64,000 nt of DNA from positions 28,336,001-28,400,000 of the forward strand of contig NW_024704742.1 in the NCBI RefSeq assembly GCF_018977255.1, read 5' to 3'. The stretch is from Callorhinchus milii (taxonomy: Eukaryota). This document shows, piece by piece, positions 25,310-25,436 of the stretch. Below the pieces are notes generated by a model that was not told the DNA's origin, searched no databases, and saw only the letters and a program-made list of their open reading frames with translations. The first letter of the stretch is position 1; each line of letters begins with the position of its first letter. The translations under genes were made by a program, and so were the position numbers.

Positions 25310-25436
25310 CAAGCTGTTAAAGAAAACCAGAAGCACAGGGAGGCTGAAGAGAAGATGCTGAAAGCTAAGATATTCAGACAGAAAAGTGAGAAGGAAAGAC
25401 AGCAGAAGAAAAAGCAACTTTTGGACATTAATGCAG
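25310..25436 (+). CDS. DIAPH1: Internal coding exon of a Diaphanous-related formin (DIAPH family; end of FH2/coiled segment immediately before the DAD). Closest to DIAPH1 by recalled sequence; paralog uncertain
   Basis: Acceptor ttctttaattacAG at 25308-25309, CTAAT branch-like motif at 25262, donor CAG|GTATGT. 127 nt = 42 codons + 1 (phase 0 to phase 1). Translates [42 protein letters not shown](E), matching the DIAPH1/2/3 segment [51 protein letters not shown] (recalled from memory), including the phase-1 boundary. Confidence 0.88.

Follow-up and report, generated by a model that had tools for sequence, protein, structure and literature searches.

A probable fourth Diaphanous formin gene, beside PCDH10 and PCDH18, in the elephant shark Callorhinchus milii

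The usual count of Diaphanous formins in vertebrates is three, DIAPH1 to DIAPH3. The DIAPH formins are nucleators and elongators of actin that are autoinhibited through DID and DAD and released by Rho. The elephant shark, Callorhinchus milii, is a slowly evolving cartilaginous fish, and genes that are kept in this species yet lost elsewhere are a known pattern. According to published abstracts, hearing loss has been linked to two of the three DIAPH genes. In the literature searched, no fourth Diaphanous gene of vertebrates is described, whether as 'DIAPH4' or otherwise. In Pruyne (2016; PMC5047451), the 'lost human formin' is the PHCF subtype and not a Diaphanous.

A gene on contig C1 of the C. 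milii assembly (991.5 Mb), hereafter the C1 gene, is proposed to be a fourth DIAPH ohnologue derived from the two early vertebrate genome duplications, with a probability of about 80 %. This idea was put forward in an original prediction made from a single exon, and it is supported by the presence of four DIAPH loci in the genome, by the neighbours PCDH10 and PCDH18, and by a position outside the DIAPH1, DIAPH2 and DIAPH3 clades. The gene is a new member of the Diaphanous family, not a new kind of system, and is distinct from the DIAPH1, DIAPH2 and DIAPH3 of C. milii itself.

Comparison with the known family members shows likenesses in two directions. As in DIAPH1, including that of the shark (P0172), the layout is FH3/DID, FH1, FH2 and DAD, the DAD tail is of the form FRRK[KR], and the intron positions and phases are the same; DIAPH1 is also the closest clade on both trees. 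Unlike DIAPH1, the C1 gene is outside the DIAPH1 clade (100/99), with 65 % FH2 identity to it, and lies beside PCDH10 and PCDH18 on another chromosome, whereas DIAPH1 lies beside the clustered protocadherins. It is also far longer. Counting the GBD/DID-like exons at 27.346-27.724 Mb, the C1 gene lies on the + strand between about 27.35 and 28.41 Mb, a span of about 1.07 Mb, compared with about 86 kb for shark DIAPH1 (C13), about 0.21 Mb for DIAPH2 (C15) and about 0.25 Mb for DIAPH3 (C4). With DIAPH2 and DIAPH3, the C1 gene has in common the motif RQQKKK in the exon described below, GBD-like exons that are nearer to a DIAPH3, and convergence with a delta-2 protocadherin (PCDH19 and PCDH17, respectively). 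Unlike these two, it is outside both clades (100/99 each), has 58-64 % FH2 identity to them and has a DAD tail without FRDRRKR. The exon is two codons shorter than that of DIAPH1 and three codons shorter than those of DIAPH2 and DIAPH3, and the LAKEKA of these proteins is replaced. The database records from the same locus (P0003 and P0002) bear a DIAPH1-like name and no statement of a fourth paralogue; the name 'DIAPH1-like' hides the real status of the gene, which is corrected here.

The window, meaning the whole stretch of 64,000 nucleotides that was analysed (G000:C1:28336001-28400000), contains a single exon of the C1 gene, with parts of the two introns that flank it (Table 1). The borders read ttaattacag/CAAGCT at the start and AATGCAG/gtatgt at the end, and the translation is 42 residues and one base, without a stop. 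The encoded segment belongs to the charged helix that joins FH2 to DAD in a Diaphanous formin. Over its whole length, with one 3-residue gap, it matches PDB chains of mouse and human DIAPH1 (E = 1.2e-6), falling on the helix after FH2 in entries 3obv, 3o4x and 1v9d. A clean DIAPH exon of 127 nt had been predicted here, with which the ag/gt borders, the stop-free frame, the DIAPH homology and the spliced contigs all agree. The prediction also held that there was no other DIAPH exon nearby, and when five DIAPH proteins were compared with the window by tblastn, the sole match with E < 0.1 was exon 25310-25436. The preceding coding exon ends at C1:28266345 (ttcttg/gtgagt) and the DAD exon starts at C1:28412139 (ag/gtggcgg), both outside the window. 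Since the exact borders of these neighbouring exons were located, the upstream intron can be given as 94,964 bp and the downstream one as 50,702 bp, and it is because of these distances that no further DIAPH exon was seen in the original prediction. No Pfam family was found in the two longest open frames of the window (17399-18154 and 33991-34560).

Table 1. Positions of the exon and its borders (numbered within the window) and of the DIAPH and protocadherin loci (on the contigs of the assembly).
Feature	Position	Strand	Remarks
Intron part upstream of exon	1..25309	+	Last 25.3 kb of 94,964-bp intron; no DIAPH-like coding match
Splice acceptor ag	25308-25309	+	Preceded by T-rich tract
Coding exon	25310..25436	+	127 nt; in phase 0, out phase 1; ag/gt borders
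Splice donor gt	25437..25438	+	Context G/gtatgt; contig letters beyond exon are the DAD exon start
Intron part downstream of exon	25439..64000	+	First 38.6 kb of 50,702-bp intron
C1 gene, FH2-DAD matches	C1, 27.88 to 28.41 Mb	+	11 matches
C4 (DIAPH3) matches	C4, 28.99 to 29.06 Mb	-	8 matches
C13 (DIAPH1) matches	C13, 18.358 to 18.389 Mb	+	7 matches
C15 (DIAPH2) matches	C15, 5.94 to 6.02 Mb	-	8 matches
PCDH10	C1, 28.66 Mb	-	1105.8 bits to 6vg4, against 618 for next family
PCDH18	C1, 28.73 Mb	-	6vfr, 631 bits; 6vg1, 702 bits; compared with PCDH10 EC1-4, 359 bits
PCDH19	C15, 5.665 Mb	+	734 bits
PCDH17	C4, 28.71 Mb	+	659 bits (EC1-4), against 558 for PCDH19

In a search of 5.8 billion proteins, the exon was 100 % identical to two of the 91 proteins matched at E <= 1, both of them from Callorhinchus milii. 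These are a RefSeq model of 1568 aa named 'protein diaphanous homolog 1-like' (P0003) and a UniProt FH2 domain-containing protein of 491 aa (P0002). Besides these two, nothing among the 91 matches exceeded 68 % identity, the next best being teleost DIAPH1 proteins. Contigs from four public sequencing runs (two studies), presumed to be of RNA, were aligned to positions 24310-26436 of the window. A single contig from each of the four runs (lengths 704, 882, 1539 and 1092 nt) spans exactly 25309-25438 without a mismatch, and the adjoining intron bins around the exon have zero contig depth. In all four runs, the letters that overhang the exon are those that close the upstream exon on one side and open the DAD exon on the other. 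As the contigs jump both introns, of 95 kb and 51 kb, at the splice sites that were predicted, we infer that they originate from cDNA and that the C1 gene is transcribed and correctly spliced.

For the count of DIAPH loci, the whole genome was searched with the 491-residue P0002, taking exon matches at E <= 0.001. There were 39 such matches, all but five of them on contigs C1, C4, C13 and C15 (Table 1); the five single matches on other contigs (39-45 % identity) are presumably other formins. The identities of the loci are clear from comparisons with named proteins. The N-terminal half of the annotated Callorhinchus DIAPH1 (P0172) has 13 matches of 71-98 % identity on C13, 10 of them of at least 86 %, with one further weak match there (54 %), and weaker GBD/DID exons were also found with it on C1 (27.346-27.724 Mb), C15 and C4. 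Fetched exons of the C4 locus are 72-73 % identical to named DIAPH3 proteins and those of the C15 locus 73-74 % identical to named DIAPH2 proteins. The fetched FH2 exons of the C1 gene, by comparison, have identities of only 65 % to DIAPH1, 63-64 % to DIAPH2 and 58-61 % to DIAPH3. The number of DIAPH loci in this genome is therefore four (C1, C4, C13 and C15), not three.

The neighbouring genes also differ between the loci. A search of the whole genome for Pfam Cadherin_2 gave 62 matches, 49 of which make up the array of clustered protocadherins that immediately follows DIAPH1 on C13 (- strand, 18.44-18.73 Mb). Single protocadherins could be assigned by their scores against solved structures at the other three DIAPH loci (Table 1), and no close solved relative was found for the further protocadherin frames L036 (C15) and L038 (C4). 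PCDH10 and PCDH18 are 250-320 kb from the 3′ end of the C1 gene, so that the paralogon predicted for a fourth ohnologue, that of PCDH10 and PCDH18, is indeed the one in which the gene is found. At each of the four loci, DIAPH and its neighbouring protocadherin or protocadherins are convergent, 3′ end to 3′ end. The synteny of DIAPH1, DIAPH2 and DIAPH3 is held by C13, C15 and C4, respectively, and the C1 locus has none of these. In addition, four full-length Sprouty-domain loci are present on C1, C4, C13 and C15, with two shorter matches on C3 and C9. There are thus four loci on four contigs with paralogous neighbours in matching orientation, which is the layout of an ohnologue quartet. The C13, C15, C4 and C1 blocks are taken by us to correspond to human 5q31, Xq21-22, 13q21 and 4q28.

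It is likely that this arrangement goes back to one ancestral unit, in which a protocadherin gene and a Diaphanous gene would have lain 3′ end to 3′ end before the genome duplications. The unit would now be present fourfold, as the clustered protocadherins with DIAPH1, PCDH19 with DIAPH2, PCDH17 with DIAPH3, and PCDH10 and PCDH18 with the C1 gene.

Within the exon, the differences from the paralogues are pronounced. The homologous exon is 133 nt long in DIAPH1, 136 nt in both DIAPH2 and DIAPH3, and 127 nt in the C1 gene. Replacement of the conserved LAKEKA stretch together with a 3-residue deletion had been predicted and is real; the three-codon gap and the change from LAKEKA to IFRQKS are seen in the C1 gene alone among 14 aligned sequences. 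The prediction had also described the exon as a mixture, with a start and an end like those of DIAPH1 and a middle like that of DIAPH2 and DIAPH3. For the middle this is borne out, RQQKKKQL being identical in the shark and tilapia DIAPH2 and RQQKKK being the DIAPH2/3 form, as it is for the end, where QLLDINA is identical in a teleost DIAPH1. The start is a partial case: DIAPH1 of apes, gar and teleosts contains QAVKENQK, but that of the shark itself differs. Further on, the basic tail after the DAD core is FRRKK in the C1 gene, FRRKR in DIAPH1 and FRDRRKR in DIAPH2 and DIAPH3. To judge by these motifs, the mixture fits a lineage that split off before the three known DIAPHs had reached their present forms.

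The position of the C1 gene was investigated in trees of two separate parts of the protein. The FH2-DAD tree (IQ-TREE, LG+C20 PMSF) has 44 rows and 467 columns, from which P0248, P0204 and P0231 were omitted because each has less than 330 residues of the query region; the rows for shark DIAPH2 and DIAPH3 were stitched from tblastn matches and contain small junction errors. In this tree, the C1 gene joins, as sister (97/87), a DIAPH1 clade of jawed vertebrates (100/99), among whose members are the DIAPH1 of Callorhinchus, Mobula and Rhinoraja, as well as ray-finned and lobe-finned sequences. DIAPH2 (100/99) and DIAPH3 (100/99) pair with each other at 89/76, giving as the best tree the shape (C1 gene, DIAPH1)(DIAPH2, DIAPH3), with 97/87 and 89/76 on its two pairs. 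Two hagfish proteins adjoin the group of the C1 gene and DIAPH1, and the clade of vertebrate DIAPHs (100/99) takes in the C1 gene and leaves out invertebrate Dia. The C1 protein is therefore outside each of the DIAPH1, DIAPH2 and DIAPH3 clades, all of them supported at 100/99, as would be expected of the predicted fourth ohnologue. The N-terminal tree, made by a quick method from the region from FH3 to the coiled coil (23 rows, 358 columns), has the same topology, with support of 96-97 on four key branches and a DIAPH1 clade (96) that excludes the C1 gene.

Alternative placements were compared by the AU test. A forced pairing of the C1 gene with the DIAPH1 of Callorhinchus is rejected (dlnL 52.9, p = 3.5e-6), as is forcing it together with the three chondrichthyan DIAPH1 rows (dlnL 33.5, p = 1.1e-5), whereas a grouping with DIAPH2 and DIAPH3 is not rejected (dlnL 6.08, p = 0.095). 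On these results, a fourth lineage older than the split between cartilaginous and bony fishes is well supported by the sequence comparisons, and within that a sister relationship to DIAPH1, rather than to DIAPH2 and DIAPH3, is favoured.

The p-AU of 0.095 leaves some room for an old fourth lineage other than a sister of DIAPH1 from the two rounds of genome duplication, one that either pairs with DIAPH2 and DIAPH3 or arose by a small-scale duplication before the radiation of jawed vertebrates. Such an origin would suit the RQQKKK motif, which is the DIAPH2/3 form, the GBD-like exons, with 73 % and 65 % identity to a DIAPH3 but 54-58 % to DIAPH1, and the giant introns, which are like those that the original prediction cited for DIAPH2 and DIAPH3. 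It is considered improbable, given that the best trees of both partitions pair the C1 gene with DIAPH1 (97/87 and 96) and that the DAD tail, FRRKK, resembles the FRRKR of DIAPH1 and not the FRDRRKR of DIAPH2 and DIAPH3. As for a small-scale copy, the fourfold protocadherin-DIAPH unit and the Sprouty genes on the same contigs fit whole-genome duplication better.

That the C1 gene is a fast-evolving DIAPH1 duplicate, confined to chimaeras or to the cartilaginous fishes and drawn to the base of the DIAPH1 clade by long-branch attraction, is far less probable still than its being the fourth ohnologue, and would require its location beside PCDH10 and PCDH18 to be due to coincidence or translocation. 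The database names are 'DIAPH1-like' and the best matches are DIAPH1 proteins; the DAD tail, too, is of the DIAPH1 type. The end branch of the C1 gene is longer than that of DIAPH1 (0.29 against 0.14 for shark DIAPH1 in FH2, and 0.88 in the N-terminal part); long-branch effects at the base of DIAPH1 are therefore possible and may influence its position. Against this, both forced groupings with DIAPH1 are rejected (p = 3.5e-6 for that of Callorhinchus, p = 1.1e-5 for the chondrichthyan rows), and two independent partitions put the C1 gene outside the DIAPH1 clade (100/99 and 96). The gene is also as close to DIAPH2 (63-64 %) as to DIAPH1 (65 %), and its neighbours are two delta-2 protocadherins that are absent from the other three DIAPH loci and yet have the same convergent orientation. 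Such an origin from DIAPH1 is thus very improbable.

An orthologue of the C1 gene has been seen in no species but Callorhinchus among the proteins searched, which is a further point in favour of a DIAPH1 duplicate. The search covered the annotated and assembled proteins of other species, and it is on this outcome that the loss in mammals put forward in the original prediction rests. With full-length candidates, no non-self protein of more than 68 % identity is among the 120 listed of 2615 matches, and with candidates of 270-860 aa there is likewise none among the 120 listed of 504 matches. P0003 and P0002 pair only with each other in a FastTree of 406 FH2 rows (404 from the databases and the two stitched shark rows). 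The best match among representative proteins at 50 % identity is a DIAPH1 at 63 %; P0003 and P0002 are themselves not among the representatives listed, and closer relatives may therefore be hidden in the same way. A skate protein named 'DIAPH1-like' (Rhinoraja, P0453) was tried as an orthologue and rejected, being a plain DIAPH1 and sister to that of Mobula. With no orthologue among the proteins of other species, the antiquity of the fourth ohnologue rests on tree position and on synteny in one genome.

FH3/DID, FH1, FH2 and DAD regions are all present in the encoded protein. Pfam FH2 is found in P0003 with 385.8 bits over profile positions 2-371 of 372 (394.1 bits in the DIAPH1 P0172), and Drf_FH3 with 148.2 bits, against a cut-off of 27, in two stretches; the split in FH3 probably stems from a wrongly modelled insert. 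Drf_DAD scores 25.2 bits, below its cut-off of 27.3, although a bona fide DIAPH1 is also below it, at 26.8. In the alignment, the DAD core (of the type MDxLLxxL) and the basic patch after it, RRKK, fall in the same columns as those of DIAPH1 to DIAPH3. The P0003 model has no GBD and starts inside the FH3 region, and its proline-rich FH1 is unusually long (about 650 residues), while P0002 has a 3′ end unlike that of P0003. GBD/DID-like exons that are absent from P0003 are, however, present upstream on C1 at 27.346, 27.621 and 27.630 Mb, with identities of 43-56 % to DIAPH1 and of up to 73 % to a DIAPH3. In a direct comparison, the GBD-like exons are 73 % and 65 % identical to a frog DIAPH3 as against 54-58 % to DIAPH1.

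That the C1 gene is a decaying relic, transcribed and spliced but without a working formin product, is as improbable as its being a duplicate of DIAPH1. Decay could account for the replacement of LAKEKA and the three missing codons in the exon, for the change of the conserved AGSRNA after GNYMN to SGSQKA, for a P0003 model with no GBD and an oddly long FH1, and for the long branches. However, 7 of the 11 FH2-DAD matches on C1 are stop-free, and three others have one stop each, either at a margin where the match overruns the exon or within the alternative 3′ end of P0002. The remaining match, C1:28412123-28412329, has no stop either, even though it takes in 16 bases ahead of the acceptor of the DAD exon and about 100 beyond its donor. 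In addition, the FH2 domain is full-length, with a score close to that of DIAPH1 (385.8 and 394.1 bits), the DAD core is intact, the identity to DIAPH1 is still about 65 % after a divergence older than the split between cartilaginous and bony fishes, and spliced contigs are present in four of four runs. A retrocopy is ruled out, because intron positions and phases are common to all four shark paralogues (the homologous exon is entered in phase 0 after ag and left in phase 1 before gt in each), so that the duplication was at the DNA level and not by retroposition.

By analogy with the family, the protein of the C1 gene would be a Rho-regulated, autoinhibited nucleator and elongator of actin, in which exon 25310-25436 would supply the helix that brings DAD back to DID. 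A helix that is three residues shorter and lacks LAKEKA may, to go by its sequence, alter the autoinhibition or the binding of actin or microtubules by the tail.

A broader reading, in which every part has to hold at once, is offered tentatively and is on balance unlikely. The ancestral jawed vertebrate would have had four DIAPHs, of which the fourth would still work in chimaeras and would have disappeared from bony vertebrates, and perhaps also from sharks and rays, the introns being kept for regulatory elements of PCDH10 and PCDH18. If that is true, what is left of the lost DIAPH in mammals would be the gene-poor region next to PCDH10, and the rewritten linker between FH2 and DAD would give an autoinhibition set-point unlike that of DIAPH1 to DIAPH3.

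For the family as a whole, a fourth ancient DIAPH would complete the set of four copies that is expected, and the tail-to-tail unit of a protocadherin and a Diaphanous gene would predate the genome duplications and have been kept four times. The C1 gene of C. milii also provides a natural variant of the FH2-DAD linker for studies of autoinhibition.

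The RefSeq model of the fourth Diaphanous-type gene (P0003, 'protein diaphanous homolog 1-like', 1568 aa) probably lacks part of the 5′ end, because GBD/DID-like exons lie upstream of its start. Two of these three exons resemble a frog DIAPH3 (73 % and 65 %) more closely than they resemble any DIAPH1 (54–58 %); despite this, the FH3 tree places the fourth gene beside DIAPH1. Residues ~430–1080 of P0003 are modelled as a proline-rich FH1 of ~650 residues, several-fold longer than the FH1 of shark DIAPH1, and the FH3 match is interrupted by an insert. Each of these two features could be genuine or an artefact of modelling. 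In the FH2-DAD tree, an alligator protein (P0428, 'diaphanous-like protein 2 isoform A [Alligator mississippiensis]') falls within the tetrapod DIAPH1 clade, therefore its database name looks wrong.

An Rfam search of the 64 kb window found nine tRNA-like matches (31.5–60 bits), on both strands and scattered through the intron. As nine of them crowd 64 kb of intron, this suggests the heads of tRNA-derived SINEs rather than functional tRNA genes. Near the 127 nt exon, two short segments have very high summed depth (up to 10,938) in contigs from four public runs, presumed to be RNA, and the contigs over them have many differing loose ends. These segments look like dispersed repeats found in numerous transcripts, and they do not belong to the DIAPH gene.

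Features of the four C. milii DIAPH loci (assembly G000; C1, fourth gene; C4, DIAPH3; C13, DIAPH1; C15, DIAPH2) and of the window.
Feature	Position	Remark
Clustered Pcdh + DIAPH1	G000:C13 18.30-18.73 Mb	3′ end to 3′ end
PCDH19 + DIAPH2	G000:C15 5.66-6.15 Mb	3′ end to 3′ end
PCDH17 + DIAPH3	G000:C4 28.71-29.24 Mb	3′ end to 3′ end
PCDH10/18 + fourth gene	G000:C1 27.35-28.73 Mb	3′ end to 3′ end
Protocadherin-like long frame (L036)	G000:C15:6281500-6289500	879 aa; near DIAPH2
Protocadherin-like long frame (L038)	G000:C4:29401500-29409500	897 aa; near DIAPH3
Sprouty-domain frame	G000:C1:847523-847858	full-length
Sprouty-domain frame	G000:C4:39439096-39439434	full-length
Sprouty-domain frame	G000:C13:17294447-17294839	full-length
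Sprouty-domain frame	G000:C15:3042324-3042659	full-length
GBD/DID-like exons (L043-L045)	G000:C1 27.346, 27.621, 27.630 Mb	upstream of P0003 start
tRNA-like match	window 8935-9006	Rfam
tRNA-like match	window 12457-12525	Rfam
tRNA-like match	window 14441-14512	Rfam
tRNA-like match	window 31369-31440	Rfam
tRNA-like match	window 43959-44022	Rfam
tRNA-like match	window 48218-48280	Rfam
tRNA-like match	window 53361-53432	Rfam
tRNA-like match	window 54271-54342	Rfam
tRNA-like match	window 54774-54845	Rfam
High-depth segments	window 25872-25942, 26227-26436	run contigs

In the genome search, four full-length Sprouty-domain frames share the four contigs of the DIAPH loci. SPRED-type genes may account for two shorter matches, one on each of contigs C3 and C9. 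Protocadherin-like long frames are also present near DIAPH2 and DIAPH3; compared with solved structures, neither has a close relative, the top match being a CELSR1 chain. At all four loci, a protocadherin and the DIAPH gene are arranged 3′ end to 3′ end, which points to a tail-to-tail protocadherin–DIAPH pair that is older than the genome duplications.
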